DNA from: Candidatus Moranbacteria bacterium UBA2282
GTDB taxonomy: Bacteria > Patescibacteriota > Minisyncoccia > Moranbacterales > UBA2206
Assembly: GCA_002345745.1 (NCBI GenBank)
Contig: DDWQ01000011.1
Location: forward strand, 85,995-149,994
Reading direction: 5' to 3'
DNA: 64,000 bases
Shown one piece after another: positions 9,263 through 59,646 of the stretch. The position numbers and the translations under genes were made by a program. A model generated the notes under the pieces. The model was not told the origin of the DNA. It did no database searches and was given only the letters and a program-made list of their open reading frames with translations. Position 1 is the stretch's first letter. The number at the start of each line of letters is the position of its first letter.

Positions 9263-10854
9263 TTTCTTAGAGATTTAATTAACCCAAAGCGACCGAAGGA
9301 TTTAAAATCTAAAACATTAGAATTTTTTTCTAGTGTTTTTATTTTATTGTCTTTTGATTCAGTGCTAATCAAGGTAAAGACGATGTTACCAGCGACGCTA
9401 TTTTTCTTATTTAATGGTTGCAAATGCACCCCTTGCTTTTCTGTCAAATAGATTAAACCCTTGGATGCCTTAAATAAATATTGACTGTTTCCATCCAACA
9501 AAACATCTTGCGATAAGTTATTTTGTGCAGTAATGTAGTTTGCCATCATTGCAAGCTCCCCCAGATATACATTATCAAATCCATCCATATTGCTACTTTC
9601 AGTATAATTATTCAAAGCAATAAAATTATCTCTAACCGTCCAGAGATTTAAAGCAATTAAAATTATCATAATAGTTAGCGTAATAACAACCTCATTGTTT
9701 TTAAATTTCTGTATTAAAAATTCTAGCCATAAACCTAAAAATATAAATGGTAAAAAGGTGATAATCAGAAAGTATCGCAATGAAAGTTCATAAGCGACAG
9801 GAGTCATAAAGAAAGCCATAAGCCCCGCATAGCTCAAAATTAGCCCTAGGAAGCGTTTTCTATCTTCACTAGTCTCTTTTACTAATCGCCAAATTCCCAG
9901 GCCTAGACCACCCAAAAACAACAGTCCGCCCAACAAAATATCCACAATATGACCTGCTGTTTTAACTGGCAAAAAGTTGCACTGATCCGATTCTCCTACC
10001 GATGAAATTGTAAAGGTCGTGGCAGTCATAAAGCATTCCCCCACGCGTCCAGCCTTCAGCAATAAATTTTCATCTTCTTTCTTAGTTGTCACACCGCTGA
10101 AAAGAGCTTTGACATTGTCACCGCCTGTTTTTGCTTCATTATATAACTGCGGAATATTTAAAAAAATTGAAACAACAAAAACAATCATAAAACTCTTCCA
10201 GAGATTATTTTTCTTAGGCACCTCAATTCTCAGATAAACAAAATACGCAATAGTCAGCAGTGGCATCACCACGAGCAAAAAAGTGTGCAACTGCACCCCG
10301 ACGCCTACAGCGACACCAGCCATCACTGACCAGAAGATTCGATGCTTGCCTTGAGATTCGGCTAATTGCAAAAGTGCATAGAGAAAAAGCATCGTCCAAA
10401 AAGGCGTTGAATTTGGATTCCAAGCAAAATGTGCATACTTAATGGCGTAAAAAGAAACGGCAAAGAGTGCAGTCAGTGCCAGTGCTAATTTTTCACTGAA
10501 ATATTTTTTTAGGAAAAAAAACAAAAGTGGAATAGATAGCAAAGAAAAGAATAAGTCTGGGTATGCTAATTTGTCAGGATAATTGCCAAATATTTTTCCA
10601 GCAATTATTTGAAATTCATAGAAAATTGGACCCAGACGAAAATCAGTTCCACCCGCTTTTGGTCCCAAAAGTGGCCAACCAGTTTCTCCATTGATAACTT
10701 CACCAACAAGCGTTGCATCTCGTGCTTGATCAGCGTTGAACCGCAAGCCATCGTGAAAATTGTAAGTACGCAAAAAAATTCCAACTAAAATTATTGCGAG
10801 GAGAATCCAGGTCTCTTTTTTTATATTTTTAACTATGTTTATCATTTTAACCAT
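9259..10854 (-). CDS. GT-C fold membrane glycosyltransferase (ArnT/PMT-like, GT39/GT83-type), paralog 1
   Basis: N-terminal loop RFNADQARDA...PLLGPKAGG resembles the DE-x-RYA/KPPL motifs of ArnT. It is polytopic and has paralogs at 11792..13444 and 16082..17836. Confidence 0.7.
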   Translation of the reverse strand: MVKMINIVKNIKKETWILLAIILVGIFLRTYNFHDGLRFNADQARDATLVGEVINGETGWPLLGPKAGGTDFRLGPIFYEFQIIAGKIFGNYPDKLAYPDLFFSLLSIPLLFFFLKKYFSEKLALALTALFAVSFYAIKYAHFAWNPNSTPFWTMLFLYALLQLAESQGKHRIFWSVMAGVAVGVGVQLHTFLLVVMPLLTIAYFVYLRIEVPKKNNLWKSFMIVFVVSIFLNIPQLYNEAKTGGDNVKALFSGVTTKKEDENLLLKAGRVGECFMTATTFTISSVGESDQCNFLPVKTAGHIVDILLGGLLFLGGLGLGIWRLVKETSEDRKRFLGLILSYAGLMAFFMTPVAYELSLRYFLIITFLPFIFLGLWLEFLIQKFKNNEVVITLTIMIILIALNLWTVRDNFIALNNYTESSNMDGFDNVYLGELAMMANYITAQNNLSQDVLLDGNSQYLFKASKGLIYLTEKQGVHLQPLNKKNSVAGNIVFTLISTESKDNKIKTLEKNSNVLDFKSFGRFGLIKSLRN

Positions 10855-14323: not shown

Positions 14324-16072
14324 TTAAGGTTTTCCTAAATCAGTAATTTGATAGGCCACGATATAATCATCTTCATATTTGCTATCATACTGTATATATT
14401 TTTCAATAAATCTCTCCGCATTAACCAAAACTTTCTCTTTCACAAATTTTTTGCTAATTGTTATATAGCCTATGTTGTTTTCATTTAATATCTTATTAGC
14501 CTGAGAAAAATATTCTTCTGGATTTGGAAATTTTGTATCTGGATCATTACCCTTGGGCAACGTATATAGCAATTGCTTGATTACGGGCGTGTTCTGTTGC
14601 ATATCAAATTGATCCTTGATTTTCCTAGCGAGTGGCATACCATTCACCAATTCCTTGTGATGCACTGTTTGCAATATCATTTCATAACTAGCAAAGTTAT
14701 AACTCGTACTACCAGGAATTTCTAGTAGTTTATAGCTTCCACCGTCAGCGCCAATTTTATTATAGAACTTAGAATATCCCATAGAATTCATTTCGATTGG
14801 GATAACAGAAAACTCGAGCATAATCAATAGAACAATTCCTGATGCTAGCAATTTTTTATTATTAGCATATTTTTTAAATATATAAACCAATGCATATCCG
14901 GCTAAAATAGAAATTCCAATAAGAGCAAAGACAAACAATCTTCCAGTGGTTCGGATATTTTCATAGAATGGAACAAGTTTATATAAAAGATAATATGGCA
15001 AGTAAATTTTTACTTTAAAAATAGAAAAATATGGTCCCATCGCTAAAATACAAAATACCAGCGTTTCCACGACCCAAAAATTCAAACTACTGGAAATTGA
15101 ACGCAATTTTTTCCCTGCTGTTTCTTTTTTCAGGAGCAAAAAACCGATGACAATTATCGTTATAACACTAAATCCTACGAAATATACATTATCACCAGAA
15201 CCAATCAACTTGCCAAAAAAATTCCAAATAGAATGTGCCTCCGGAGGTGAAATCGGATCTAACAAATTCATTGAATATTTTGAGGCCTTACCTATTCCCG
15301 CATCCAAAAAATTATTTTCCGAAGTTGCAACTTTTAACAATGGCTTAAATATTGTTAGCGCTAAGGTGACTAAAAATAAAAGAGATGAAACAGCATATAA
15401 CCATAATTTCTTATTTTTGAGAATTTCTCTTTCCGTGATTGCTTTATAAACAATGAAAAATACTGCAAAAATAACCGTGAAAGCCAGCAGCTGATGCTCA
15501 GTTATCGCAATTAAAAGTGCTGTACCAATCAAAGCGATAAAATATCTTAATTTTAATTTTTCAAAAAATTTAAACAGGAATAAAATGAAAAAAGGCAACA
15601 ATTCCTGATGCATTGTTCCGATATTTGTCGAAAGAGCTTGATGAAAATGAAAAGGCGAAAAAGCAAAGATAACCCCCGCAATGAAAGCCACTGTCTTATC
15701 TTTAATAAAATATAAAGTCAGTAAATACATTCCAACTCCGCTTAAAACGAAACTAGCCAGAAAAAGAAAATTATATGCAAAAAAATTGTTAGTGAAGAAA
15801 GCTAATATTGAATACGGCAAAAAGACATTGATTTGAAAAGTCTCCGCTAAATATTTCAGCCCAACTGAGAATCCACTCGCCTGCATAATTCCGACCTGAC
15901 TACTAATATTTCCAAAAGCCTGATAGACATCACTGCCCCACATTGGAACCATCGAATTTATATTAAAGATGACTGGATAGGTAAATATAACCACAAGCAT
16001 AGCATACAATCCAGTGATTGTTGTTATTGGATAGCACCTAAAAAAATCCAGTAGCAGTTTTTTAATTTTCAT
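14324..16072 (-). CDS. Polytopic membrane protein; possibly a YfhO/GT-C-like glycosyltransferase
   Basis: 582 aa with at least 12 TM helices. Lies inside the GT-C/phosphoesterase operon with no intergenic gaps. Confidence 0.45.
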   Translation of the reverse strand: MKIKKLLLDFFRCYPITTITGLYAMLVVIFTYPVIFNINSMVPMWGSDVYQAFGNISSQVGIMQASGFSVGLKYLAETFQINVFLPYSILAFFTNNFFAYNFLFLASFVLSGVGMYLLTLYFIKDKTVAFIAGVIFAFSPFHFHQALSTNIGTMHQELLPFFILFLFKFFEKLKLRYFIALIGTALLIAITEHQLLAFTVIFAVFFIVYKAITEREILKNKKLWLYAVSSLLFLVTLALTIFKPLLKVATSENNFLDAGIGKASKYSMNLLDPISPPEAHSIWNFFGKLIGSGDNVYFVGFSVITIIVIGFLLLKKETAGKKLRSISSSLNFWVVETLVFCILAMGPYFSIFKVKIYLPYYLLYKLVPFYENIRTTGRLFVFALIGISILAGYALVYIFKKYANNKKLLASGIVLLIMLEFSVIPIEMNSMGYSKFYNKIGADGGSYKLLEIPGSTSYNFASYEMILQTVHHKELVNGMPLARKIKDQFDMQQNTPVIKQLLYTLPKGNDPDTKFPNPEEYFSQANKILNENNIGYITISKKFVKEKVLVNAERFIEKYIQYDSKYEDDYIVAYQITDLGKP

Positions 16073-26423: not shown

Positions 26424-26455
26424 CAAAATAGCCAAAAGAATATGTTTTTTTATTA

Positions 26456-26510
26456 CTTAGTCTACTTAGGACTCTACTTAGGACGGTCCTAAGTAGACCT
26501 AAGTAGATTA
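26456..26510. repeat. REP-A element (extended nested palindrome around the CTTAGGAC-G-GTCCTAAG core)
   Basis: tctacttaggactctacttaggac g gtcctaagtagacctaagtaga. Same core as the copies around RAYT-1. Confidence 0.7.
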
Positions 26511-26568
26511 GAAAAATTTTACGAAAACTGCTATACTTAATCTATATTAGATAAAAAACAAAAAAATA

Positions 26569-28023
26569 ATGCTTATCAAAATAAAATTTATCATATTCAT
26601 TCTCACTCTTTCTTTTCTACTGACCCCGCTTTTTGATGTTCACGCCTCCTTGTCTGATGACGCGAACGCTTACCAAAAATATCCTTTGCATGAAAAATAT
26701 GAAAAGAAAAAGAAATATAAGGAATACTTAAAAGCTAAAGAAAAATATGCTTTTGAAACCACTGAAGAAAAACTCGAATACAAGCAAGCTTATGATAATT
26801 ACAAACTATTTAAAAAAAATCCGGTAACCTATCGTCGATATGCTGTTCTTTTACCTGAATATAATAAATATAAGAAATATAAGGAAAAATATCTTCCCCT
26901 AAAAAAATATTCCACATACAAGAAATATAACAAAAAGGAATATGATAGATACAAAAATTACGGTTCTAATGGATATAAGGATGGCTACAACCGCTACAAG
27001 GTTTTTATGAATGACCTTGGAAATGTGACCACTAATCGTGGACCAGAAATAAAAGTTGGACTTTGGAGCTATTCCATTGCAGATCTTCAAAGCAGTCCAT
27101 TCAAGATTACTGCTAACAAACCATTTGATGTCACCAATTGTGATTCGACCAAAATAAATCCAACTCCTATTGCCATCGGTGAAAATGCCAGAGTAACATA
27201 TCTTGGTCCGGATGGAATACTTCAAGTCTATAACAGTAACATTCCTGAACTTTTTCCAATCACTGACAATCAGGACAAATTTTGTTTTGTGGCTTCTGAC
27301 GGCAACAATGATGATATGATTTTTGATGTTAATAGACCATCCTCTACTTACGATCAATACCGTGGAAAAATAAAAATTCAGCATAGCTATACCCAAGACA
27401 ATCAAGATCAAGAAGGAGATTTGCGACGCATTTGGGTTATCAATGAACTTCCACTTGAACATTATGTTTGGGGCTTTGGAGAAATTGGCGGAGGAGTCCA
27501 GCAACATTCACTCGCGATGTTAGTGACAGCTCGCACATACGCACGCTGGTATCTCCAACCAACTGTGACTAGGTGGAATGAAGAAGGTTTCAATGTTCTC
27601 TCAACTTCAGGTTCACAAATATATAGTGGCTATGACTACGAAAAAGATCATCTCACAATTCCGGATCTTGCACGCCAAACAAATGGAATCATAATGAGAA
27701 ATCAAGATGGCGATGTCGTGCTGGCAGCCTATAGCAGTTGGACAGATGGACGCACACGAAAATATGAAGATGGTCTTTTTGGCGGAAGTTGCAAGGCTGT
27801 TACCGCTGGAGATACATCATCTGCATATCCAGAACTCAGTGCTGTGTCTGACCCCTATGGAAAAAATTCAAGTCTAGACACTTGTGCCTTAGGTAGCGCT
27901 GGAAATCATATGGTCGGCCTCAGTGCCAACGGTTCACTTAATCTTGCCGCAAATTATGGCTGGTCTTGGACAAGAATTTTGAGTTATTACTATTCAGGCA
28001 TTAACATAGTCAAAGAATATTAA
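26569..28023 (+). CDS. Secreted SpoIID/LytB-domain protein with a Lys/Tyr-rich repetitive N-terminal region
   Basis: Signal peptide. YKKY-type low-complexity repeats. C-terminal HSLAMLVTARTYARWY resembles the SpoIID AQAVAARTYA motif. Confidence 0.5.
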   Translation: MLIKIKFIIFILTLSFLLTPLFDVHASLSDDANAYQKYPLHEKYEKKKKYKEYLKAKEKYAFETTEEKLEYKQAYDNYKLFKKNPVTYRRYAVLLPEYNKYKKYKEKYLPLKKYSTYKKYNKKEYDRYKNYGSNGYKDGYNRYKVFMNDLGNVTTNRGPEIKVGLWSYSIADLQSSPFKITANKPFDVTNCDSTKINPTPIAIGENARVTYLGPDGILQVYNSNIPELFPITDNQDKFCFVASDGNNDDMIFDVNRPSSTYDQYRGKIKIQHSYTQDNQDQEGDLRRIWVINELPLEHYVWGFGEIGGGVQQHSLAMLVTARTYARWYLQPTVTRWNEEGFNVLSTSGSQIYSGYDYEKDHLTIPDLARQTNGIIMRNQDGDVVLAAYSSWTDGRTRKYEDGLFGGSCKAVTAGDTSSAYPELSAVSDPYGKNSSLDTCALGSAGNHMVGLSANGSLNLAANYGWSWTRILSYYYSGINIVKEY

Positions 28024-28040
28024 ATAAATAATTACGACCT

Positions 28041-28586
28041 ATGAGCAAATTCTCCAAAATCTCTCTCACAATTTTCATTTTTGTACTAGCAGGATTATTG
28101 ATTTATAGTTTTCTCATTTTCCGTGACCGTAATTCCGTGCCAAACAAGGATGATTCTCAACAATCAGCAGAGCAAGAACAAGAAAATGCTCCTTCAACAG
28201 ATTCATCAACTGATTCAGTCACAGATAATTCAAGCATAGATTCCGAAGACGCCGATAACACAGAGGGAGAGTCTGAAAGTGTCACATCTGAAAATACTGA
28301 TTATATCAATATTTCACGCTCTGATTGTGACAACAATTGCCAGGATTTCACTGACCCAGACGATCTCAAATATTGTCAACAAGTTTGCGGGCTGACGGAA
28401 ATCAAAAAGGACGTCACAGAAAAAACTGGTTGCGACGCCCTGCAAGATTTGGAAAAAGACTATTGTCTCAAAGATTTGGCGATTACCAAAAAAGATATCA
28501 GCCTTTGCGCAAAAATCAGCGACACCAATGTCCTCAAGACTTGCAAAAATCGCATCGCCCAAGACCTACTGGAATCACAAAATTAA
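28041..28586 (+). CDS. Small secreted/anchored protein with an acidic Ser/Asp-rich region and a Cys-rich C-terminal domain
   Basis: N-terminal TM/signal segment, a low-complexity S/D/E stretch, and 8 Cys in the C-terminal half. Confidence 0.4.
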   Translation: MSKFSKISLTIFIFVLAGLLIYSFLIFRDRNSVPNKDDSQQSAEQEQENAPSTDSSTDSVTDNSSIDSEDADNTEGESESVTSENTDYINISRSDCDNNCQDFTDPDDLKYCQQVCGLTEIKKDVTEKTGCDALQDLEKDYCLKDLAITKKDISLCAKISDTNVLKTCKNRIAQDLLESQN

Positions 28587-28596
28587 ATAATAGATT

Positions 28597-28620
28597 TACT
28601 TAGGACGGTCCTGGGGAATA
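28597..28620. repeat. REP-A copy
   Basis: acttaggacggtcctggggaata. Confidence 0.65.
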
Positions 28621-28743
28621 TAACCGATTAGAAATCGCATATTTAGACTCAAACATAATACTTTAAGTTATATTCTATAGTCTTATTATAGACGATTGAT
28701 AGACGATTGTCAACCTCACTAGCCTACTGGCGGTTACGCATTT

Positions 28744-28785
28744 CATTGGCAGGTGAGTATTCACCAGTCAATACTCACCCCCAAT
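28744..28785. other. Nested stem-loop (CATTGG..GGTGAGTATT..AATACTCACC..CCAATG); possible terminator or small structured RNA
   Basis: 10-bp inner arms plus 6-bp outer arms; lies between convergent genes. Confidence 0.3.
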
Positions 28786-28832
28786 GCGAGTGAAATATTT
28801 TCAGGCTCCAATTTTTAAAAAATTTATAATGT

Positions 28833-29825
28833 CTACACTTCACTAATTACATCAAATCCCTTGAAGCTTCCGGTAATTGAGAGTCCAATAACCTTTTTTG
28901 CAATTCCCTTTTGCTTGATTTGCAAAGCAGTTTCATTGAGCGTCGCCCCTGACCCAACAGCATCATCAATCAACAGAACATTATCAAATACTCCACGCTC
29001 ATCCACAATAATCGTATTTCTGGCATTCTCAATACGATCACTCAATTTAGTGAGGGTTTTTTGCGGAACAATAATCTCAGTCTTGATTTTGACAATAGAA
29101 ACTCTGCGAACATGCTCATGTAGATTCTTTTCCAATTCTTTCATAAGTTGCACTTCACGTTTCACTGTCGGTGGAATAAATCCAATTCCATCAATTTTAT
29201 ATCTTACAATGAGTTCATCGATTCTTGATTTGACGTCACTTGTCAATTCACGCATCAATTTTTTATCCTGACTCTGTTTGGCATACAAAAGCAATTGTCC
29301 AAGTTTTGTTTTGCCGAATCTTTCAATACTATAAAAATCCAAATAAAAAACCTTATCCAGTCCAACTTTTTCAAATGTAGCTTTGAACTTTTCAATCCCA
29401 TCAATGACACTATTTTTCTTGAATGCATTATATTTTTCTAGAGTTTTGACATATTCAACGGCAGTTTTCTCAACTGACTGATTTGTTCTCCCGCACCAAT
29501 ATTCAAAACCATCCACTCCTTGCTTGCGTTCTCCTGAAGGCGAAATAAAAAGAAAATTTTCTTCTATAATTTTTTTAATATTATCACCAATAATAAAAGG
29601 ACTTTTTTTTGCAAAAAACTCGTCACTAATCATATAAAAAACCTTTGGTGACTTACCAATCTTACTCAGTGTGTTATCAGCAATCAAATTAGCCAACTGT
29701 TTGAAAACAGCTCTTTCGCTAATTAACAAATAATCAACAAGTTCACTAGCCGTTACTTGTTTTTTTGCCTGTATATATTCAACAATTTTTTCTGCAGTAG
29801 TTTTTTTCATAAGTTCATAGTTCAT
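28833..29825 (-). CDS. Winged-helix plus phosphoribosyltransferase (PRTase, type I)-domain protein
   Basis: C-terminal NVLLIDDAVGSGATL PRPP-binding motif. The N-terminal roughly 60 aa are wHTH-like. Confidence 0.6.
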   Translation of the reverse strand: MNYELMKKTTAEKIVEYIQAKKQVTASELVDYLLISERAVFKQLANLIADNTLSKIGKSPKVFYMISDEFFAKKSPFIIGDNIKKIIEENFLFISPSGERKQGVDGFEYWCGRTNQSVEKTAVEYVKTLEKYNAFKKNSVIDGIEKFKATFEKVGLDKVFYLDFYSIERFGKTKLGQLLLYAKQSQDKKLMRELTSDVKSRIDELIVRYKIDGIGFIPPTVKREVQLMKELEKNLHEHVRRVSIVKIKTEIIVPQKTLTKLSDRIENARNTIIVDERGVFDNVLLIDDAVGSGATLNETALQIKQKGIAKKVIGLSITGSFKGFDVISEV

Positions 29826-30010
29826 ACTTAACTATGAACCAATATAACATATTTATATCTTTTGTCAATACCTCAATTTTATGGCTTAATACAGCCCACT
29901 TTACCCAAGCCATCTTTTCCAAAATGGCTGGCGCAGAAAGGCAGGAGAGAAAAATTCGTCGTGGGTGAGATACTAACTTAGGCAAACTTAGGACGGTCCT
30001 AAGGAATATC
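29822..30010. repeat. Copy A of a roughly 185-bp repeated element ending in REP-A
   Basis: Near-identical to 30987..31175. Contains the GCCATcttttccaaaATGGC hairpin and ends gtgggtgagatactaacttaggcaaacttaggacggtcctaagg. Confidence 0.7.
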
Positions 30011-30060
30011 GTGGATGAGATACTAACTTAGGCGAACTTAGGACGGTCCTAAGGAATATT
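29961..30060. repeat. 50-bp tandem duplication carrying two REP-A cores
   Basis: The unit gtggDtgagatactaacttaggcRaacttaggacggtcctaaggaatat occurs twice. Confidence 0.7.
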
Positions 30061-30065
30061 ATCTT

Positions 30066-30285
30066 GCAGTTGTCAATACCTGAATTTTATGGCTTAAAAT
30101 TAGGATTTTTCTGCTCTTTTCACTGAGGACGATCCTAGAGAATAGCGACGCTTATCCAAGCCATCTTTTCCAAAATGGCTGGTGCAGAAAAGCAGGGGAG
30201 AAAAATTCATCGTGGGTGAGATACTAACTTAGGCAAACTTACTTAGGACTACGAACTTAGGACGGTCCTAAGTAAACTAAGTAAA
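30066..30285. repeat. Diverged copy B of the 185-bp element plus an extended REP-A
   Basis: Shares ttgtcaatacctSaattttatggcttaa and ccaagccatcttttccaaaatggctgg...gtgggtgagatactaacttaggcaaactta with copies A and C. Ends in acttaggactacgaacttaggacggtcctaagtaaactaagtaa. Confidence 0.6.
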
Positions 30286-30286
30286 T

Positions 30287-30916
30287 CTAATCTTCCAAAT
30301 AAAACTTGCTCATTTCTTTTCGCTCTTTCATGCCAACGACTTTTTCCATACAGAAAACACTGTAATCTTCCGCATTTTTGAATTGTCCAAGCACTTCATC
30401 TTTTTGACATCCAATCCCCGATTTTCCCATATATTCTGAGAAACTGCACCATGGATATTTTTCAGCTTTTTCAATGCCATGAATTTGACTATTGCAATTC
30501 ACATACGCCGACATATACAAAAGTAAATCATTTGAATTTATGTGCACAGACTTGAATCTTCCCTGAAATAAAACTCCTGATCGATTATATCTTTTGTTAA
30601 AATACATAGCATAGCCAGTGCCAATCTTTTTCATAAACATCGCAATACCGTTTTCTTTATTCTCTCTTAGAATGAGATGGAAATGATTTTGATTTAAGCA
30701 ATATGACACCACATCAACCAATCTTTCTTCTGGTCTTGGACGAACCTTATCCTCATCTCTCATTTGAATTGGATTTTCAGTATTAAAAAATATCAAAGAC
30801 CTAAGCAGACGGGTATAATCCGTATTCCGCTTGAATATTTGTCTTTTTTCTACTCCACGATTGAAGATATGATAATATTCGCCAATCGTGAAAAATTCTC
30901 TTCGTTGCATAAACAA
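30287..30916 (-). CDS. REP-associated tyrosine transposase (RAYT; IS200/IS605 TnpA-like HuH Y1 enzyme), copy 1
   Basis: EYYHIFNRG, the HuH motif NHFHLIL, and GRFKSVHINSNDLLLYMSAYVNCN (catalytic Tyr region). REP-A palindromes flank it on both sides. Confidence 0.75.
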   Translation of the reverse strand: MFMQRREFFTIGEYYHIFNRGVEKRQIFKRNTDYTRLLRSLIFFNTENPIQMRDEDKVRPRPEERLVDVVSYCLNQNHFHLILRENKENGIAMFMKKIGTGYAMYFNKRYNRSGVLFQGRFKSVHINSNDLLLYMSAYVNCNSQIHGIEKAEKYPWCSFSEYMGKSGIGCQKDEVLGQFKNAEDYSVFCMEKVVGMKERKEMSKFYLED

Positions 30917-30961
30917 ATTCTAGCACAAAGCGCCTTCTATACCTAGACTTACTTAGGCAAA

Positions 30962-30979
30962 CTTAGGACGGTCCTAGGG
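30962..30979. repeat. REP-A copy (upstream of RAYT-1)
   Basis: cttaggacggtcctaggg. Confidence 0.7.
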
Positions 30980-30986
30980 AATATAG

Positions 30987-31175
30987 TTCATACTTAACTA
31001 TGAACCAATATAACATATTTATATCTTTTGTCAATACCTCAATTTTATGGCTTAATACAGCCCACTTTACCCAAGCCATCTTTTCCAAAATGGCTGGCGC
31101 AGAAAGGCAGGAGAGAAAAATTCGTCGTGGGTGAGATACTAACTTAGGCAAACTTAGGACGGTCCTAGGGAATAG
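30987..31175. repeat. Copy C of the 185-bp element ending in REP-A
   Basis: Near-identical to 29822..30010. Confidence 0.7.
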
Positions 31176-31627
31176 TGGTAACAGTTTCGGCAAGGTTTCA
31201 TAAAAAGTTTGTCGACGATGATTGATACCAAAATATTCTTTGAGCAATTCAATTGATTGTAATTTTGATGCTGGCTGGATAATTCGCATAATTACCAAAT
31301 CATGCAAGAGTGTATTGCCAACAGCGGTAAATTTAAAACGATCAAGTAGTTTGATTAAAATTTCATAGATAAAATTGTAACGAAATCCGATGTATTCACA
31401 TTTATCCAAAATGGCAAAGCTGTGTTGTTCCTCAACTTTATCAAACAAGCTCTGTTGCTTGGTTGTTTTTTAACCCAAGCCCCGGCAATTTTTAGAAGTG
31501 CATCAATTTCTTCATTTGTGCGACCACTGCCAATATGCTTGGACAGTGTCATTTTGCGTTCAAGGTAACTTACAACTTGCACAGCTGTTGCTCCGGAAGC
31601 AGTTTTAGTTTTACGAATATGATACAT
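31176..31627 (-). pseudogene. IS1634/IS4-superfamily transposase remnant (N-terminal part, frameshifted and truncated by the 185-bp element)
   Basis: ORF 31355..31627 begins MYHIRKTKTASGATAVQVVSYLERK..HIGSG, as IS1634 transposases do. It continues in another frame (31176..31448); the C-terminal part of that frame is a translated repeat. Confidence 0.5.
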
Positions 31628-31785
31628 GGCAGTACATTACTACCCTTAGTATGACAAAAAACTCTTTTTTTCACAAATTATCCTTTAGTTTAGCTGAAAT
31701 ATTTTTTTGGAAAAATGAGGCGGACAAGTCGGGACCATGGATATTCGGCAATCCAGCCAATATTTTTCAAACTAAAAAACTTCTG

Positions 31786-31801
31786 CCGAGGACGGTCCTA
31801 G
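31786..31801. repeat. Degenerate REP-A copy
   Basis: gaggacggtcctaggg. Confidence 0.5.
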
Positions 31802-31813
31802 GGAATGTTAACT

Positions 31814-31894
31814 TTATCTTGCAATGTTTTTATCAAATCCACGATTAAAAATGTGATAATATTCGCCAATCGCGAAAAATTCTCTTCGTTGCAT
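31814..31894 (-). pseudogene. Duplicated 5' fragment of the RAYT-1 gene (26 codons then a stop)
   Basis: 31836..31963 duplicates 30858..30985. It encodes MQRREFFAIGEYYHIFNRGFDKNIAR*. Confidence 0.6.
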
Positions 31895-31932
31895 AAACAA
31901 ATTCTAGCACAAAGCGCCTTCTATACCTAGAC

Positions 31933-32412
31933 TTACTTAGGCAAACTTAGGACGGTCCTAGGGAATAAAGCGATATTTCCATAGGTTCTAAAAAAGGAAT
32001 ATCCGTACAATTTAGAATTTTTCATAAATCGAGATCCAAGAATGGCTGCTAGTTCATCATTTCGCTCAATTTCACTGATAAAATTGTTAATTTCCTGTGT
32101 TTTTGCCTGATCATCGCCATGCAAAATGATCACATAATCCATTCCATTTTCAAAGCCAAAATTGAAGGCAACCTTGTGAGATCCTCCTAAACCATAATTA
32201 TTATCATTTCTAAAGACATTAAATTTATCATGGCCAATTGTTTTTGTTTTTATCGCATTAATTGCTGAATTTATAGTATCATCCTTGCTTTGATTATCTA
32301 TGATAATCACTTTCTCAATCTTATCCAATAGATTTTCATCAAAACCAGCAATTACCCGCTTTATTTGGATTTCACAATTATAACAAGGAATCGCCACTAA
32401 TATTTTTGACAT
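31933..32412 (-). pseudogene. GT2 glycosyltransferase truncated after about 150 aa by the REP/RAYT-fragment insertion
   Basis: The N-terminus ILVAIPCYNCE...IIIDNQSKDDT...HGDD is a GT2 A-domain. The last 10 codons (FPRTVLSLPK) are a translated REP-A. There are no C-terminal TM helices. Confidence 0.5.
31946..31963. repeat. REP-A copy
   Basis: cttaggacggtcctaggg. Confidence 0.7.
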
Positions 32413-32413
32413 A

Positions 32414-33109
32414 TTATTTTATATTATTTGAGGTTAGTAAATCATAAGCGGATTTAAAGGAAACTGCACTAACTTCTAAAATAATCGGATCGGAAGAAAT
32501 TTTATGCCTCAATCCAATCATATCTTTTTTATAGTTTTTCAGAGCCTCCTCTTTATTTTGGGGCAATTTAGAAATTCTAGCAATACTTAGATGCAATATA
32601 TTTTTCATCTTAATCGGTTTTAATCCGCATTTCTCATATATGTGCCCCAATTCCAATCTTACTCTTTCAATTTCTTCTGGCATATCAGTCGAAGTCAACA
32701 AAACATTTTCCTTATCTATTAAAATATATTTAAATTGAATTTGAATGCCGGAAAGATTTTGAATGTTCTCTTTAAATTCACCGCTTTCAATAATTTCTTT
32801 AAAAATTTTTTCTCTATCTGAAACTTGAATGCCCTCAAATAATCCCTCTAGCAAAGTTGAGTGAAAAGGATAATCTTTACCGCCTAAAATAAAACCGACT
32901 TCATTTTCTTTCCCGATTATTTCTATATTAGATGCTATCCGTTGATTTATTTGGTCATTGGATTCATCAGAAAATAAGATAGCACAATTCAATCTATTTT
33001 TTAGATCCTCTGAAAATCCATTAAATATTTTAATGTTCTCGGCATCATTGAGAGACTTTCTCCCAGAATAATCTATGCCAGCATATTTTATTATTGTTTC
33101 TTTGAACAT
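32414..33109 (-). CDS. Putative 2H-phosphoesterase superfamily protein (LigT/CPDase-like)
   Basis: Two H-x-S/T-x motifs, PFHSTLLEG and ILHLSIARI, about 90 aa apart as in LigT. Otherwise unrecognised. Confidence 0.4.
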   Translation of the reverse strand: MFKETIIKYAGIDYSGRKSLNDAENIKIFNGFSEDLKNRLNCAILFSDESNDQINQRIASNIEIIGKENEVGFILGGKDYPFHSTLLEGLFEGIQVSDREKIFKEIIESGEFKENIQNLSGIQIQFKYILIDKENVLLTSTDMPEEIERVRLELGHIYEKCGLKPIKMKNILHLSIARISKLPQNKEEALKNYKKDMIGLRHKISSDPIILEVSAVSFKSAYDLLTSNNIK

Positions 33110-33122
33110 ACCCTTACTTTAT

Positions 33123-33479
33123 TTATTTAAAAACAAATTTTAATCTAAACCAAAAATTCCAGAAAAATGTAACAGCCATCGATATGAATTTTCCAATATA
33201 TGGCAATAATTTGAAATGCTCAACACAAATAATGGTAATAAAAATCTGCAATAAAACTCCAAAAATACTCCCAACAAAAATCATTATTATTTCCTTTCCA
33301 ATTTTTTCTGATCCATTTTTAAAAACAATCTTCTTACTAAAATACCAATTTAGAACTGTAGCTATCACAAAACTAATCACTATGGCAATAACATAATATA
33401 TCTGTAAATAACTATTCAAAAATATGAAAGCTTCCATCTCAAATGCGACAAGAACAAGTGCGACAGCAAAATATCTCAC
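33123..33479 (-). CDS. GtrA-family small membrane protein (polyprenol-P-sugar flippase-like)
   Basis: 118 aa with 4 TM helices and the C-terminal WNFWFRLKFVFK pattern of GtrA. The start is taken at the internal Met (MVRYFAV) to avoid overlapping the upstream gene. ORF track 33123..33575. Confidence 0.55.
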   Translation of the reverse strand: MRYFAVALVLVAFEMEAFIFLNSYLQIYYVIAIVISFVIATVLNWYFSKKIVFKNGSEKIGKEIIMIFVGSIFGVLLQIFITIICVEHFKLLPYIGKFISMAVTFFWNFWFRLKFVFK

Positions 33480-33516
33480 CATCTTTTCATAAATAAAATT
33501 AAATTTATTCACATAA

Positions 33517-35682
33517 TTATATAATATCTTCATGTATAAAATCATCGTAAAATTCATTAAGTAACCTAATTGCAACGCTATAGAATGCTAAAAAAGTTTC
33601 TGGGTTTATCTTTGCTCGGTATGTTAACATTCTGAAATAATGGATAGCTTCATGAAATTTTATCAACTTTAACCTATCATGTGTTAAATTTTCAGATAGT
33701 ATTTTTTCTAAATGCAGGAATAACTCAGAATATTTTGAAGAAATATTCTCTTCAAAATAAATCTCATTTCCATTGTATCGAACACTTTCCAACATGCATA
33801 AAAATTCATACCCAGAATGCAATGATTGATAGAGCTTTGCATAGTCAACTAATGGATCGGAGATATAATTTTCATTATTAGGATCCAATAATATAAACTT
33901 GCCCTCATTTACTATAATATTATCAACTGTCAAATCTCCATGCAACGAGGTTTGATAATATCTTGAGATAGATTGCATTATCCTTTCATTGCTGGTTATT
34001 TTTTCCATTATTATAGAAAAATTATCATACTCCTTTCCATTTATAATTATTTTTGGATAATCTATAATTTGAGGAAGTTGATGATTTAAAACCAAGCAAT
34101 CATTAACTTTATCAAATATCTTTGTTTTTATATAATAATCTAGATTTTTAACTGATTCAATAATTTCTCCACTAGAATATAGCTCCTTATTAACAAAAAT
34201 TATAACGTCCTCTAATATTTTTTTGCTTACATCTATATTACTTGAGTGAATAAAATCAAAAAATGGAATATATTCTTTATTATATTCTATATCAATTGAA
34301 TAAGATACTTCGTCTTTTTCACATCCAATTATATTGGGAATATTTTCCAAATGCTGCCGTTCCTTTATCCAATTATATTGATCTTCTAATTTAGCTGCGT
34401 GCTGTAAGAGAGTTATCTTTCGTACACACTCTCTCTCACCATTCCACGCCAAGATAGTAACCGCATTCGACCCGCCCTTAAACGTTTTCAAAAGTCGTGT
34501 TTTATCCGATATTTCTTGCAAACTAATAATCCGTGCGATTTCTAGATTTTTAAAATATGCATCTAAAAAATAGCTCATTTCATTCGAAATATCCTCATAT
34601 CTAAATAACTTATTCATATATTTACCACTCGCATCCCCAGCTATCTCCTTCGCGCTAAAAAAATCAAATATTCCATATTGTCTAAGACCATTACCAAAAA
34701 GAAATAGTGCTCCAATTATGGATATCGGAATAACAAGAATCACCCACGAAATCAGAGAGAAAGATAATATATTTTCTTTCTGAGATATTATATTGCTCAC
34801 TATAATTGTCAAATAATAATGATATGTCCCAACATACGCTGGCCCAGATGGAATAGAGGCGCTAATGTATGAGGCAAGTGATATCAATAAATTCTTAGCA
34901 ACATCTCCATTTTTAAATACTACCTTTGCCAATAACAGGAGGGACTCCACATAAAATATCCACATCAATACAGACAAGGCTACATATTTTTTAATACTTA
35001 CTTTTTGGTATATTGTATTTATTCCATAAATAACAGACCAGATAATAAATCTTAACTTATCTTTTATTTTATTATTAAAAAGATTTGTTAATTTATAAAA
35101 GAATTTAAGAAGCATTTTGTTTTGAACATATAATTCAAATATTACAATCAATATAACCAGAGAAATCGCAATCATAGCAATAATAAACGGAAGCAGGATG
35201 GATATAAAATTCAGAGCTACTTTAACATTTCCACCCACAAGAAGCGCAACGGCAACTCCAGCCAACACGATAATCACATCAATTGATCTTTCAAATAAAA
35301 TCGTTATAAAAACGACTGTGCGGCTAATATTGAGCTTTTTTCCGATTACATGCGCCCGCATAAGCTCTCCCATTCTAAAAGGTAATATGGAATTAAATAG
35401 AAAACCTATCCCTAGGGACTTAAATAAAAATAAACTATTTGTGTTTTTAATTGGATTAATTAATAATGATGACTTGTATGCTCTTAAATAATGACCGACC
35501 ATTTGAAGCAACACGATTAAAATAAGCAGTAAAATACTAGGGTGAAAAAAATTTTCGTCCCGTAGATCAATATTAAATTGGCTAAAAAATCTAATTAGGT
35601 AAAATAGACTTACCACTGTGCCAATAAAAAAAATGCTCAATAATAGTTTTTTGCTTTTTAACATCATATTTATACCATTCAA
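33517..35682 (-). CDS. Fusion protein: N-terminal flippase-like LPG-synthase-TM domain plus C-terminal APH/choline-kinase-like phosphotransferase domain
   Basis: The N-terminal 330 aa are polytopic and carry the ILPFRMGELMRAHVI (P-x-R-x-GE-x-x-R) hallmark. The C-terminal part carries HGDLTVDNIIV and LLDPNN (the APH catalytic and Mg-binding loops). Confidence 0.6.
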   Translation of the reverse strand: MNGINMMLKSKKLLLSIFFIGTVVSLFYLIRFFSQFNIDLRDENFFHPSILLLILIVLLQMVGHYLRAYKSSLLINPIKNTNSLFLFKSLGIGFLFNSILPFRMGELMRAHVIGKKLNISRTVVFITILFERSIDVIIVLAGVAVALLVGGNVKVALNFISILLPFIIAMIAISLVILIVIFELYVQNKMLLKFFYKLTNLFNNKIKDKLRFIIWSVIYGINTIYQKVSIKKYVALSVLMWIFYVESLLLLAKVVFKNGDVAKNLLISLASYISASIPSGPAYVGTYHYYLTIIVSNIISQKENILSFSLISWVILVIPISIIGALFLFGNGLRQYGIFDFFSAKEIAGDASGKYMNKLFRYEDISNEMSYFLDAYFKNLEIARIISLQEISDKTRLLKTFKGGSNAVTILAWNGERECVRKITLLQHAAKLEDQYNWIKERQHLENIPNIIGCEKDEVSYSIDIEYNKEYIPFFDFIHSSNIDVSKKILEDVIIFVNKELYSSGEIIESVKNLDYYIKTKIFDKVNDCLVLNHQLPQIIDYPKIIINGKEYDNFSIIMEKITSNERIMQSISRYYQTSLHGDLTVDNIIVNEGKFILLDPNNENYISDPLVDYAKLYQSLHSGYEFLCMLESVRYNGNEIYFEENISSKYSELFLHLEKILSENLTHDRLKLIKFHEAIHYFRMLTYRAKINPETFLAFYSVAIRLLNEFYDDFIHEDII

Positions 35683-41321: not shown

Positions 41322-42662
41322 CTATTTTTTAATAATTTTCCAATATCCTCCCTTGTCGGGACCAACCCTTTTTAGCAAATCTTTTTCCTTTAATTTTGAG
41401 ATATCTCTTTTAATAGTTTTTTCATTAACACCTGCCTTTTTGGCTATTTCTGGAATTGTAATTCTATTATTATTTCTAATAATTTCCACAACAATATCTT
41501 CTCGATTTTCAGGGACATTTTCAGGGACATTTTCAGGGACATTTTCTAATGCCATTCTTTTGAAAATTATAGAGAACCAATTCTCGTTGGTTTCAATTTT
41601 TGGATTTGGAAGACCATATTCTTTCATGGCTTTTTTCATCCGCAGAATTCCAGACCCTATTTTCTCCACCAAATCCATTCTCTGCATCAAGCCAAATAGA
41701 AGATTATTTCTGGACAAACTTCTTTTACCCAATTCTTTTATCGTCATTCCCCGCACTAGCCCTCCGGGATTAGTTATTTCAACTCGATCAGAAAAAATAT
41801 AAATCTGAATATTCGCACCTGTCACGAAATAGTTTCTGTGCGCAATTGCATTCAGGATTGCTTCGCGCAATGCGTCTTCTGGTAGTTCTAATTTTTCTTC
41901 TCGCGGTCCACCTTTTATGATAAATTCTGTGTTCAACTTTGAACGCAGATAATCCATGGCATTCTCATAATTGCTAAATAGGTCAGCATCAAATTCTTTT
42001 CGGTCCAATATTCTGTATTTTGTCCTTCCATAAAAAAGCACGCATGTAATCGTTGACTGCAAAAGAAACTTTGTAATATCATTGGAAAAAAGAAGTACAC
42101 CGGCATTTTTCATTTTATCATCAGAGACCAAATTAAGATTTGTCAAAATGTCGCGTGTTGGCAAAATTTTTCTTATATGAGATAGTCGTAAAAAGTTATT
42201 AAAAGATTTTTTATTTAAATCCTTTTTGATATCAAATTTTTCATTAACCCTCTCATCAAAAAGAACCAGGCCTTCTTTTTGAAAAAAATATTTGATTTCA
42301 TTTCTCGTAAGTTGCTGACTATTGGCTCCTTGGCGCAAGTAAAATTTTCCCACAATTGAATATGGTTTTTCTTTGCCCTCTGGGACATCAACAATCAAAA
42401 TACCCTCAATTTCTTGCAAATGTATGGTCATTTTCGGATCAAGATTTCTGCCAATAACCTGAATTTCTGATTTTAATTTGTTGGTAATTTTGATTTCTTT
42501 TTTTATTCCGGAATCAGTAATTCCAATAAATATCTTTCCCCCAGAAGCATTGGCAAAAGCACACATTTCTTTTCCAATTGTGGAACTATGCGACTCTTTA
42601 AATTCAATATTATAGCCTTCTCCTTGGCTGATATAAAATTCTAATTCTTTTTTCATTAACAT
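41322..42662 (-). CDS. AlbA_2 (Schlafen-like) plus HATPase_c_4 (RecG-C-like) plus wHTH putative ATP-dependent DNA-binding regulator
   Basis: N-terminal YNIEFKES...CAFANASGG (AlbA_2/divergent AAA). The C-terminal wHTH is RITIPEIAKKAGVNEKTIKRDISKLKE. It contains an ENVPENVPENVPEN repeat. Confidence 0.6.
   Translation of the reverse strand: MLMKKELEFYISQGEGYNIEFKESHSSTIGKEMCAFANASGGKIFIGITDSGIKKEIKITNKLKSEIQVIGRNLDPKMTIHLQEIEGILIVDVPEGKEKPYSIVGKFYLRQGANSQQLTRNEIKYFFQKEGLVLFDERVNEKFDIKKDLNKKSFNNFLRLSHIRKILPTRDILTNLNLVSDDKMKNAGVLLFSNDITKFLLQSTITCVLFYGRTKYRILDRKEFDADLFSNYENAMDYLRSKLNTEFIIKGGPREEKLELPEDALREAILNAIAHRNYFVTGANIQIYIFSDRVEITNPGGLVRGMTIKELGKRSLSRNNLLFGLMQRMDLVEKIGSGILRMKKAMKEYGLPNPKIETNENWFSIIFKRMALENVPENVPENVPENREDIVVEIIRNNNRITIPEIAKKAGVNEKTIKRDISKLKEKDLLKRVGPDKGGYWKIIKK
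41507..41546. repeat. 12-bp tandem repeat (3 units) inside a CDS, encoding (VPEN)n
   Basis: agggacattttc repeated three times. Confidence 0.8.
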
Positions 42663-48187: not shown

Positions 48188-48208
48188 TGTAGGGGTTTCA
48201 CCCCTACA
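48188..48208. repeat. REP-B copy (TGTAGGGGT-TTC-ACCCCTACA), immediately 3' of RAYT-2
   Basis: 9-bp perfect arms with a 3-nt loop. Confidence 0.75.
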
Positions 48209-48210
48209 GA

Positions 48211-48849
48211 TTATTCTTCCAGCAAATATCTTCTCATTTCATTTCTGCGTTGATTTATTTCCTTCGCATTTACATCAACAAATTTACCATAATCACTTTT
48301 ATTCTTAAACTGATTTAGAATTATTTCTGGATTGCATAACTTTTCAACATCATCACCCAAATAGCTTTTCAAACTTGACCTAAATTCTTTTACATCATGA
48401 ATAACATTATTACCATTCACATAAGCTGACAGATGCAATAAATATTCATTACTATTTATATGTATAGCCTTAAATCTTCCTTGAAATAATGAACCATTTC
48501 TTTTATTTCTATGATTAAAATATCCTGTATATCCACCGCCTATGCGTTTCATAAATTCCGATATACCACCATCACTCAACTGCTTTAGTATAAAATGAAA
48601 ATGATTTGGAAGCAGATTGTAGACAATTATTTCCACTAACGCACCATTCTGTAGGGGTTTCACCCCTACATCATTTACTTTACTTTTTATATATAAACTA
48701 ATGATGGGTTCGATTTCATTAAATTCTTTCATTGATTTAAGAAACCTGGCATAATCATATTTATCCAAAAAAATATCTCGCTTCTCCACTCCACGATTAA
48801 ACACGTGATAATATTCGCCATTTACAAATTCAAAAGAAAAGTTTCCCAT
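48211..48849 (-). CDS. REP-associated tyrosine transposase (RAYT), copy 2
   Basis: EYYHVFNRG, PNHFHFILK (HuH), GRFKAIHINSNEYLLHLSAYVNGN. Flanked by REP-B copies, and contains one REP-B in frame. Confidence 0.75.
   Translation of the reverse strand: MGNFSFEFVNGEYYHVFNRGVEKRDIFLDKYDYARFLKSMKEFNEIEPIISLYIKSKVNDVGVKPLQNGALVEIIVYNLLPNHFHFILKQLSDGGISEFMKRIGGGYTGYFNHRNKRNGSLFQGRFKAIHINSNEYLLHLSAYVNGNNVIHDVKEFRSSLKSYLGDDVEKLCNPEIILNQFKNKSDYGKFVDVNAKEINQRRNEMRRYLLEE
48650..48670. repeat. REP-B copy inside the RAYT-2 coding sequence, in frame
   Basis: tgtaggggtttcacccctaca encodes ...VGVKPLQNG... within the protein. Confidence 0.75.
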
Positions 48850-48874: not shown

Positions 48875-48895
48875 TGTAGGGGTGAAACCCCTACA
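48875..48895. repeat. REP-B copy (inverted-loop orientation), 5' of RAYT-2
   Basis: tgtaggggtgaaacccctaca. Confidence 0.75.
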
Positions 48896-58491: not shown

Positions 58492-59646
58492 CTAGTTCTT
58501 CAAATATTCCAGAGTCTCTTGCGCGCATTTTTCCCAAGAGAATTCTTTTAATTGCTCACGCCCTTTTGCAATCAACTCAATTTGCAGATCTTTAGAAATC
58601 AAAACTTGTTCTATTTGTGTACTGAGTTGTGCTGTATTCTGTGCATCAAAATATAGTGCACCTTCTCCACCAATTTCTCGCAAAGAAGAATTATCCGCTG
58701 TTATCAAAGGCACACCAGCGGCATATGCCTCTAGGATTGTGATGCCAAAGCCCTCATAAAGTGAAGGATAGACAAATACACTAGCCCCCCGAAACAAACA
58801 CCCTACATCGCAAAATTTGAGCCTGCCAGGCATTATGATGTCTTTAGAATAGACGCTATTTCTAGCCTTTTTTTCTATAGATTCCGCGAGCCATGCCTTT
58901 TCTCCCGCTAAAACCAATTTGAGAGCGCAAAAGGAGCTAAGCTCCCAAGCTTGGGAGCTTAGCTCCTTTTGCTTCCGGCTTTTTAATAAGTCAAATGCCT
59001 CAATCAATTTTTCAATATTTTTTCTCGGCTGTAACGCACCAGAATACAAAATATACTCTCCTACTATTCCAAGTTTATTTTTCAATTCTTGCTCTTTGCC
59101 ATGATCACGTGCTTGAGAAAAAACATCTGGACTAAAGCCATGATAGATGACCTGGATTTTATTGGCGTCAATTTCCGGATAAAATTTTATGATGTCATGC
59201 TTGGTCGCCTGTGAAATGGCAATAATTTTGTCTGCCTGCCTAATTGAGTAGTCCGCAAATAAATTTAGTTTGCGTAAATCTTTTGGAGGAAAATATTGTG
59301 GAAAATATTTAAAAGCCAAGTCATGAATAGTCACCACTGTTTTCAAATTTTTTCGACGTAGATATGGCAGAGCCGCCATCGGCATCCACAAAACAGTTGG
59401 TTTTTCTTTCCACACTTCCCATGCAAATCTAATTTGCGTCCACAGGATTGGAAAAGACTTTTGAATAATTTTATAATTTGAAAATTCCGGCGGAGTGAGT
59501 TCCGGATTAAATTTACTTTTGTGATAAATTAAAAACTCGCTCTGTAAATCTAGCTTGCCAAAGTGTTTTAGCAAGTTAAAAATATAGACGCGAGTTCCAT
59601 CAATGCGCTCGTGATCAAGGTCAGCTGCAGAAATTGCAATTTTCAT
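58492..59646 (-). CDS. GT4-family glycosyltransferase carrying an in-frame 46-bp perfect palindrome at the inter-domain linker
   Basis: YPSLYEGFGITILEAYAAGVPLITAD motif. Inserted peptide KELSSQAWELSSF. Confidence 0.8.
   Translation of the reverse strand: MKIAISAADLDHERIDGTRVYIFNLLKHFGKLDLQSEFLIYHKSKFNPELTPPEFSNYKIIQKSFPILWTQIRFAWEVWKEKPTVLWMPMAALPYLRRKNLKTVVTIHDLAFKYFPQYFPPKDLRKLNLFADYSIRQADKIIAISQATKHDIIKFYPEIDANKIQVIYHGFSPDVFSQARDHGKEQELKNKLGIVGEYILYSGALQPRKNIEKLIEAFDLLKSRKQKELSSQAWELSSFCALKLVLAGEKAWLAESIEKKARNSVYSKDIIMPGRLKFCDVGCLFRGASVFVYPSLYEGFGITILEAYAAGVPLITADNSSLREIGGEGALYFDAQNTAQLSTQIEQVLISKDLQIELIAKGREQLKEFSWEKCAQETLEYLKN
58927..58972. repeat. Perfect 46-bp palindrome inside the GT4 CDS
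   Basis: GCAAAAGGAGCTAAGCTCCCAAG|CTTGGGAGCTTAGCTCCTTTTGC. Confidence 0.9.

Follow-up and report, generated by a model that had tools for sequence, protein, structure and literature searches.

The 64,000-nt stretch of contig DDWQ01000011.1 analyzed here (hereafter the window) contains an intact HUH/Y1, RAYT-like gene, RAYT-1, amid copies of a short palindrome, REP-A, that its product most likely recognizes (RAYT, REP-associated tyrosine transposase; REP, repetitive extragenic palindrome). The pair is probably a REPtron-like unit, that is, a gene for a RAYT-type single-stranded DNA (ssDNA) endonuclease of the HUH/Y1 class surrounded by its own hairpin. This reading draws on the anatomy of the locus, on the fold class of the protein, on the conservation of protein and hairpin together across genomes and on gene junctions that are identical in independent contigs.

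Regarding the palindrome, its 17-nt form reads CTTAGGACNGTCCTAAG and its core AGGACGGTCCT, the 11-nt core being AGGACCGTCCT on the gene-sense strand. The window holds eight matches to CTTAGGACNGTCCTAAG at up to two mismatches (0.02 expected) and ten copies of AGGACGGTCCT, nine exact and one with a single mismatch (0.18 expected), and REP-A is the commonest 16-mer of the whole stretch (seven copies, on either side of RAYT-1). An earlier note on this DNA had reported at least nine copies between 26.4 and 32.0 kb on both sides of the gene; the ten copies found here all lie within 26480-31959, flank RAYT-1 on both sides and share its orientation. One of them precedes the ATG by 46-51 nt (30962..30983, minus strand, as for all copies listed below; gene-sense TATTCC-CTAGGACCGTCCTAAG), and another (30256-30272) sits in a two-tier long hairpin directly after the stop codon (30228..30290; -10.4 kcal/mol, z -4.2). 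Two copies (29987-30008 and 30037-30058, together 29987..30058) belong to a tandem 50-nt duplication, and a degenerate solo copy with the core AGGACGATCCT, then GAGAATA, is found at 30122..30144. Two more mark the points where an IS1634-family remnant (31153..31174) and a GT2 gene (31946..31967) break off, the latter being also the end point of one JGI contig, and a solo copy (CCGAGGACGGTCCTAGGGAATG, 31785..31806) lies between a 5' fragment of the RAYT gene and the IS1634-family remnant. The remaining two are intergenic: a solo copy between convergent genes, 1.7 kb from RAYT-1 (28599..28620), and a copy (26477-26493) within a ~21-bp long hairpin between divergent genes, 3.8 kb away from RAYT-1 (26453..26510; -17.3 kcal/mol, z -6.5). 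Both long, two-tier hairpins fold as ssDNA far more stably than shuffled sequence; Rfam returned nothing but chance matches to microRNA models, on the long hairpin at 26450-26520.

The gene itself (30287..30910, minus strand, 207 aa) was recognized by the Pfam Y1_Tnp profile, by an AlphaFold model and by its identity to the public protein P0001. As the earlier note had claimed, the open reading frame (ORF) 30287..30916 (minus strand) carries the HuH motif, NHFHLIL, and the catalytic tyrosine motif, SAYVNCNSQIHG; it is extensible as far as a TTG at 30916. Public annotation takes the ATG at 30910 as the start, giving a product identical to P0001, which occurs in contigs of three samples. Both motifs fall in invariant columns of an alignment of 30 RAYT-1 homologues (N75, H76, H78, Y136, V137, N140 and H144). 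The Pfam Y1_Tnp profile (PF01797) matched residues 63-140 with 30.2 bits, above its cut-off of 23. In the tyrosine motif, Y136-V-N-C-N140-S, the Y and the N are invariant and the P is replaced by S, N or T throughout the family; the class 2 TnpAY1 motif is Y---NP (PMC6006769). Compared with Table 1 of the same study, RAYT-1 is devoid of the IS200 signatures DH[VI]H, W[TS] and Y---Q and has NHFH, FQ and YVNCN. The AlphaFold model (pLDDT 90, pTM 0.87) found as its best fold match in the PDB the complex of the E. coli RAYT with a REP hairpin (4ER8; E 1.8e-7, target-normalized TM score 0.67), and the TnpA structures of IS608 and ISDra2 ranked behind it (E about 1e-4 to 1e-3, the best of them 2.5e-4). 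Within the Y1 family, the protein belongs with the RAYTs.

A search brought up more than 1,200 relatives, those with a name being mostly from Candidatus Moranbacteria or Parcubacteria, and some carry the JGI annotation 'REP element-mobilizing transposase RayT'. The family is common in Moranbacteria/Parcubacteria, and the guess in the earlier note of a genome like those of the candidate phyla radiation (CPR) fits these named homologues; the genome is Moranbacteria-like.

Evidence for a cognate pair comes from five orthologous loci (L013, L055, L056, L057 and L058), whose RAYT proteins are 64-75% identical. In all five, an identical 11-nt core AGGACCGTCCT is placed 35-49 nt before the ATG and a second copy of the core is found at most about 45 nt from the stop codon; L013 has an additional copy with one mismatch that overlaps the stop codon, and in three of the five loci one or two more copies occur within 5 kb. 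All 16 copies point with the gene. Between RAYT-1 and its orthologues, nonsynonymous divergence (dN) amounts to 0.16-0.25, synonymous divergence (dS) is saturated (>1.6 where computable) and dN/dS is at most 0.13; the gene is under purifying selection. As dS is saturated, unconstrained non-coding sequence is expected to be randomized at such divergence, and the core has nonetheless stayed identical. Moreover, the outer stem covaries: one pair is U-A in 13 cases, G-C in seven and G-U in two, the next is C-G in 10 and U-A in six, and 90% of cells are paired, versus 21-42% with the partners slid, none of 500 shuffles scoring as high.

The loci differ in their surroundings. RAYT-1 and its orthologues in L013 and L057 are found in glycan clusters, and those in L055, L056 and L058 lie downstream of rpoD. 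In these last three genomes, the order dnaG-rpoD-RAYT is kept (L055 6041-10545, L056 6412-10639, L058 5127-10630) while the DnaG proteins are only ~45% identical; such synteny across so deep a divergence points to long vertical inheritance, and the position after dnaG-rpoD is either a conserved locus or a target site used repeatedly.

Around RAYT-1, REP-A copies adjoin repeats and gene remnants. Eight copies begin with a shared edge, TATTCC (gene sense; GGAATA on the plus strand), before which stand unrelated sequences (GT2, the IS1634-family remnant, other repeat units); after the hairpin, the copies have variable lengths of sequence in common. Several repeat units start directly after the edge of another copy (30008|30009 and 30983|30984). 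The tandem duplication of 50 nt with two REPs and the duplicated 5' end of the RAYT gene, both pointed out in the earlier note, are present: the former comprises 29959-30008 and 30009-30058 (96% identical), and the latter, which had been placed at 31814..31894, spans 31828..31970 (minus strand) and matches 30844-30986 with 94% identity over 143 nt; it is made up of REP-A, the 45-nt leader and some 24 codons from the start of the gene. A hidden Markov model (HMM) of the family detects this partial duplicate at 31817-31903 (minus strand; E 7e-8). The earlier note did not report a 192-nt repeat, whose two copies are 99% identical, nor a 90-nt block present three times, twice inside the 192-nt units. 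Copy 1 of the 192-nt repeat (29817..30008, minus strand) consists, in gene-sense order, of REP-A, the 90-nt block and a promoter-like block, and ends just before a ComF-like gene; copy 2 (30983..31174, minus strand) has REP-A at either end. The third copy of the 90-nt block (30152..30241, minus strand; 94%) lies beside the hairpin 3' of RAYT-1.

Two unrelated genes end exactly at the hairpin, and both truncations had been noticed before. The 5' part of a GT2 glycosyltransferase gene (31968..32412, minus strand, ~148 native codons) runs into REP-A: its ORF (31933..32412, minus strand) covers positions 2-122 of the 168 of the Pfam GT2 profile (PF00535), leaving the domain incomplete, and its last 11 codons are read through REP-A until the ORF stops at 31933. 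The exact GT2|REP-A junction recurs in three independent contigs, each from a different sample, which encode a 159-aa GT2-hairpin fusion. The second gene is an IS1634-family transposase remnant (31175..31627, minus strand), which retains the N-terminal ~150 aa with one frameshift, has no DDE domain and ends at the hairpin. By itself it scores 21 bits against NF033559 (IS1634; cut-off 100; profile positions 42-108 of 483), and its homologues P0122 (59% identical) and P0136 (40%) reach 140 and 154 bits (profile positions 2-219 of 483); since these homologues pass the NCBIfam cut-off, 31175-31627 is taken as an N-terminal fragment of the IS1634 family and not as a functional member. Gene truncation at REP-A palindromes is hence real. 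The broader statement that a glycosylation operon has clearly been remodeled holds for the one GT2 gene and goes too far beyond it; the GT2 fragment has no orthologue among the GT2 genes beside the RAYT genes of L057 and L013.

These junctions occur in several independent contigs. A JGI contig matches 20287-31967 of the window with 100% identity and stops right at a hairpin. Identity of 100% is also seen over 29861-31123 and 29915-30976 in two short contigs of other samples, and from 31827, 31841 or 31881 to 35412, across the GT2 junction, in three contigs of three samples. In combination, the independent contigs span all junctions with mutual overlap, GT2|REP-A and REP-A|IS1634-family remnant among them.

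How such an array might have arisen can be proposed from well-studied enzymes. E. coli TnpAREP accepts only ssDNA, depends on the folded state of the REP and cleaves close to it by way of a 5'-phosphotyrosine intermediate (PMC3333891). By analogy with TnpAREP and with IS608 TnpA, RAYT-1 would bind the folded REP-A hairpin on one DNA strand, cut at a fixed spot by the hairpin foot, on the TATTCC/GGAATA side, and then rejoin the ends, whereby segments starting at one hairpin would be copied or moved beside another. Repeated local events of this kind would build the array, duplicating the 192-nt promoter-bearing segment, the 50-nt unit and the 5' end of RAYT-1, and would leave the IS1634-family transposase gene and the GT2 gene cut exactly at the hairpin. 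A cut at the TATTCC/GGAATA edge would account for the one sharp edge of eight copies, for repeat units that start right after the edge of another copy and for unrelated genes that end exactly there. On this basis we infer that RAYT-1, and not recombination between the repeats, was the probable maker of the scars. For the active strand, two hints are available: G·T wobbles favor the plus strand in some REP-A copies of the window, and the GC skew assigns the gene-sense strand to the lagging-strand template. The two hints thus disagree.

Several observations weigh against a REPtron-like unit and have to be set beside this evidence. Regarding the protein, the profile comparison suggested in the earlier note gave a divided answer: Pfam Y1_Tnp was passed, as reported above, whereas RAYT-1 stays far below the cut-off of the NCBIfam RAYT equivalog, NF047646 REP_Tyr_transpos (25.6 bits, cut-off 80). 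Sequence searches of the PDB gave no relevant match with the single protein and none whatever, 4ER8 included, with a profile of the 30-member family; only the fold search ties RAYT-1 to that structure. Regarding the palindrome, REP-A has no 5' GT[AG]G foot, its flanks being TATTCC and AATTT, and inverted pairs (REPINs, REP doublets forming hairpins, or BIMEs, bacterial interspersed mosaic elements) are absent among the 10 REP-A copies and the 16 copies of the orthologous loci. As ssDNA, the minimal hairpin reaches no more than marginal stability (-4.5 to -4.9 kcal/mol). Moreover, ~83 kb of contiguous genome (~77 kb outside the 5.5-kb cluster), assembled from the window plus ~9 kb on its left and ~9.9 kb on its right taken from overlapping public contigs, contain no REP-A beyond that cluster; as all copies sit in one cluster, the dispersal that defines REPs is not demonstrated for REP-A. 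A scan with CTTAGGACGGTCCTARG of genome and metagenome contig collections, the source genome not being among them, gave mostly single, chance-like matches; only the orthologous locus L005/L013 stood out, together with L020, where two matches occur along with a short fragment resembling a RAYT. The covariation would be equally expected of a symmetric double-strand binding site, and the REP-A copies of one genome are not mutually independent. Several of the duplications could also have come from homologous recombination or from replication slippage among the repeats, without any enzyme-specific cleavage. Finally, the direct orientation of the hairpins that flank RAYT-1 is closer to the ends of IS200/IS605 elements than to the E. 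coli REPtron.

This last point leads to the main alternative, which we regard as possible though clearly the lesser candidate, namely that RAYT-1 is an ordinary autonomous IS200-like insertion sequence (IS), with the flanking hairpins as its ends and with solo hairpins and fragments as insertion or deletion debris. It would explain why the flanking hairpins are direct and on one strand, why a partial second copy (hairpin plus 5' end of the gene) persists at 94% identity, why the orthologues occupy varied genomic contexts and why other samples yield short contigs that break off around the unit. However, the ~83 kb contain a single intact RAYT-1 besides the 143-nt fragment, there is no tnpB partner, the motifs are NHFH, FQ and Y-V-N-C-N instead of DH[VI]H, W[TS] and Y---Q, and the fold is nearer to RAYT than to IS608 or ISDra2 TnpA. 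Moreover, three genomes with DnaG proteins 45% identical keep the gene after dnaG-rpoD, and the solo hairpins 1.7 and 3.8 kb away have no gene remnants beside them.

A less probable explanation is regulatory. The palindromes would then be double-strand binding sites, or hairpins at transcript ends, that regulate RAYT-1, and the duplications would stem from ordinary recombination or slippage in which RAYT-1 cleaves no DNA. The sites ~35-49 nt ahead of the ATG and immediately past the stop codon would suit an operator and a transcript-end structure, symmetric sites covary as hairpins do, and repeats of 50-192 nt are long enough for recombination to act on. The upstream REP-A is indeed located between the ATG and a near-consensus promoter-like site, TTGACA-16-TATATT with an upstream TG, which is carried on the minus strand by the 192-nt unit (a pattern match only). 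Copy 1 of this site (29868->29841) stands 31 nt ahead of the ComF-like gene, and copy 2 (31034->31007, 11/12 matches) stands 97 nt upstream of the RAYT-1 ATG with the hairpin between; the total of promoter-like sites in the region is no higher than expected from shuffles. Against regulation, the catalytic HuH and Tyr residues are invariant family-wide, and unrelated GT2 and IS1634 genes stop at one edge of the palindrome. In-frame copies also occur within coding sequence, in the L056 orthologue P0010 and, for the palindrome REP-B, in the paralogue RAYT-2 of the window (see below), as insertion would yield and as is unexpected for an operator. REP-A is also unlike an intrinsic terminator, because no T-run follows the hairpin.

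About equally improbable in our view is a stronger proposal, according to which the RAYT-1 family would be a domesticated, vertically inherited hairpin nuclease of Moranbacteria/Parcubacteria, with a recognition core kept invariant despite saturated dS and a place after dnaG-rpoD in several genomes, whose local cut-and-paste of hairpin-bounded segments (promoters, gene ends) the host would use to vary surface-glycan clusters. Both RAYT genes of the window and two of the five orthologues are situated in surface-glycan gene clusters. Finally, the repeats might have been mis-assembled in a metagenome bin, for which one could invoke the JGI contig that stops exactly at 31967 and the other contigs that stop within the 143-nt and 192-nt repeats. 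This is hardly credible and is rejected, since contigs obtained independently from three samples agree with the window at 100% identity and overlap over all junctions.

The REPtron-like reading thus remains the one we favor, and a comparison with known systems helps to define what kind of unit this is. The E. coli REPtron combines TnpAREP/RAYT (YafM, PDB 4ER8) with REP/BIME sequences (PMC3333891, PMC3479197). RAYT-1/REP-A resembles it in having a Y1 HUH protein whose closest fold is that of 4ER8, its own palindrome on either side of the gene, a paralogue with a different cognate palindrome and few gene copies. RAYT genes are characterized by about one copy per genome and vertical inheritance (PMC5581495), and the ~83 kb hold one intact RAYT-1 and one 143-nt fragment. 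In contrast, E. coli REPs have a 5' GTAG foot, form inverted pairs (BIMEs) and number hundreds genome-wide, whereas REP-A has no GTAG, points in one direction and is seen only in its 5.5-kb cluster; RAYT-1, in turn, has no profile-level sequence match to 4ER8 and falls below the NCBI RAYT cut-off. The description of the locus in the earlier note as a classic RAYT/REP architecture therefore stands for the Y1 HUH protein, its RAYT-like fold and its own palindrome, but not for the rest: without the GTAG foot, the inverted pairs and an adequate score against the RAYT equivalog, and with no copy beyond the cluster in ~83 kb, RAYT-1/REP-A is not a classic REPtron.

With IS200/IS605 elements such as IS608 and ISDra2, the unit shares the fold and the catalytic motifs, hairpins on two sides in direct orientation on one strand, and sharp boundaries a few nucleotides from the hairpin foot. 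It differs from them by the lack of Y---Q and DH[VI]H motifs and of tnpB, by not being multi-copy in ~83 kb, by solo hairpins without a gene and by a locus that is conserved across deeply diverged genomes. Among the TnpAY1 subclasses, NHFH and FQ correspond to the second motif set of subclass 2.1 (NH[YF]H / FQ), and the Y---N of class 2 is kept, with YVNCN[S/N/T] instead of Y---NP, a likeness drawn from the motifs of Table 1 of that study (PMC6006769). Subclass 2.1 has been reported without REPs, whereas hairpins are conserved in the RAYT-1 family; in-frame REPs within the gene, as in RAYT-2 and L056, recall subclass 2.4, and the non-GTAG flanking hairpins resemble the atypical ones of subclasses 2.6 and 3 (PMC6006769). 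Atypical hairpins and in-gene REPs are hence already known from other TnpAY1 subclasses (PMC6006769). Moranbacteria and Parcubacteria, which make up the bulk of the RAYT-1 family, are missing from the taxonomic-distribution column of Table 1 in that work (PMC6006769).

Among the papers listed by our literature search, none joined RAYT, TnpAREP or REPtron with CPR, Patescibacteria or Parcubacteria. To our knowledge, nearly all work on REP/RAYT systems has concerned Proteobacteria and Cyanobacteria. RAYT-1/REP-A would hence be a known kind of element in a host group without an earlier description, where a large RAYT-like family has maintained its cognate hairpin and, within a genome that is small and streamlined, has visibly cut genes short. 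With its direct-only orientation and local clustering, the system stands between IS200-type elements and the classical REPtrons, which bears on the domestication of RAYTs, and the invariant 11-nt core offers a simple, testable protein-DNA recognition pair.

A paralogue, RAYT-2 (48211..48849, minus strand), is also RAYT-like and 44% identical to RAYT-1. It has a palindrome of its own, REP-B, unlike REP-A and with a GTAG...CTAC 'double-foot' (GTAGGGGT(TTC/GAA)ACCCCTAC), found at 48189 (just past the stop codon), 48651 (in the gene), 48876 (27 nt before the start) and 50141, the copies at 48876 and 50141 being inverted in orientation. The copy at 48651 is in frame and codes for DVGVKPLQ. In L056, P0010 has an intact REP-A-type hairpin at 10179-10189, likewise in frame, in a variable loop of its own gene (VEDRPLP). 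When RAYT-1 is aligned to this in-gene hairpin, 30730-30757 reads AGGTTCGTCCA and matches 8 of the 11 core bases, and many family members have ..RP at this position; the alignment suggests a decayed ancestral in-gene hairpin in the RAYT-1 family. L058 contains a palindrome pair, AAAGATACCTGCAAAGGTATCTTT + AAAGTGAATGGTTTCACTTT, upstream of its RAYT orthologue and again 5 kb away (9689-9751 and 14804-14866), which may be a second repeat family.

One remnant proposed in the earlier note found no support. A RAYT C-terminal remnant had been placed at 31652-31790, that is, mostly in the 157 nt of unassigned sequence between the start codon of the IS1634-family remnant and the REP-A copy beyond it (31628..31784). 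The family HMM has no match there at E<50, tblastn with 121 family proteins gave a best E of about 0.004 (231-nt target), and the sole similarity at the DNA level is an exact match of 12 nt (E 0.28).

Among minor features, a perfect sigma-70 consensus (12/12, TTGACA-17-TATAAT) at 28685-28713 (minus strand) points at the solo REP-A at 28599-28620. It has no ORF behind it, the adjoining sequence at 28720-28800 appears structured, and a short hairpin-ended transcript from this site is possible. Both 192-nt copies contain identical 44-aa 'genes' called by JGI (29834-29968 and 31000-31134), which are most likely spurious. Elsewhere in the window, a perfect 46-nt palindrome, GCAAAAGGAGCTAAGCTCCCAAGC / GCTTGGGAGCTTAGCTCCTTTTGC, is found at 58927-58972 within a GT4-like ORF (58492..59646, minus strand), and a tandem 12-nt repeat, TTTTCAGGGACA, is present in 3-4 copies at 41505-41545 within the ORF 41322..42662; besides REP-A and REP-B, this last repeat alone in the window has 16-mers that occur at least three times.

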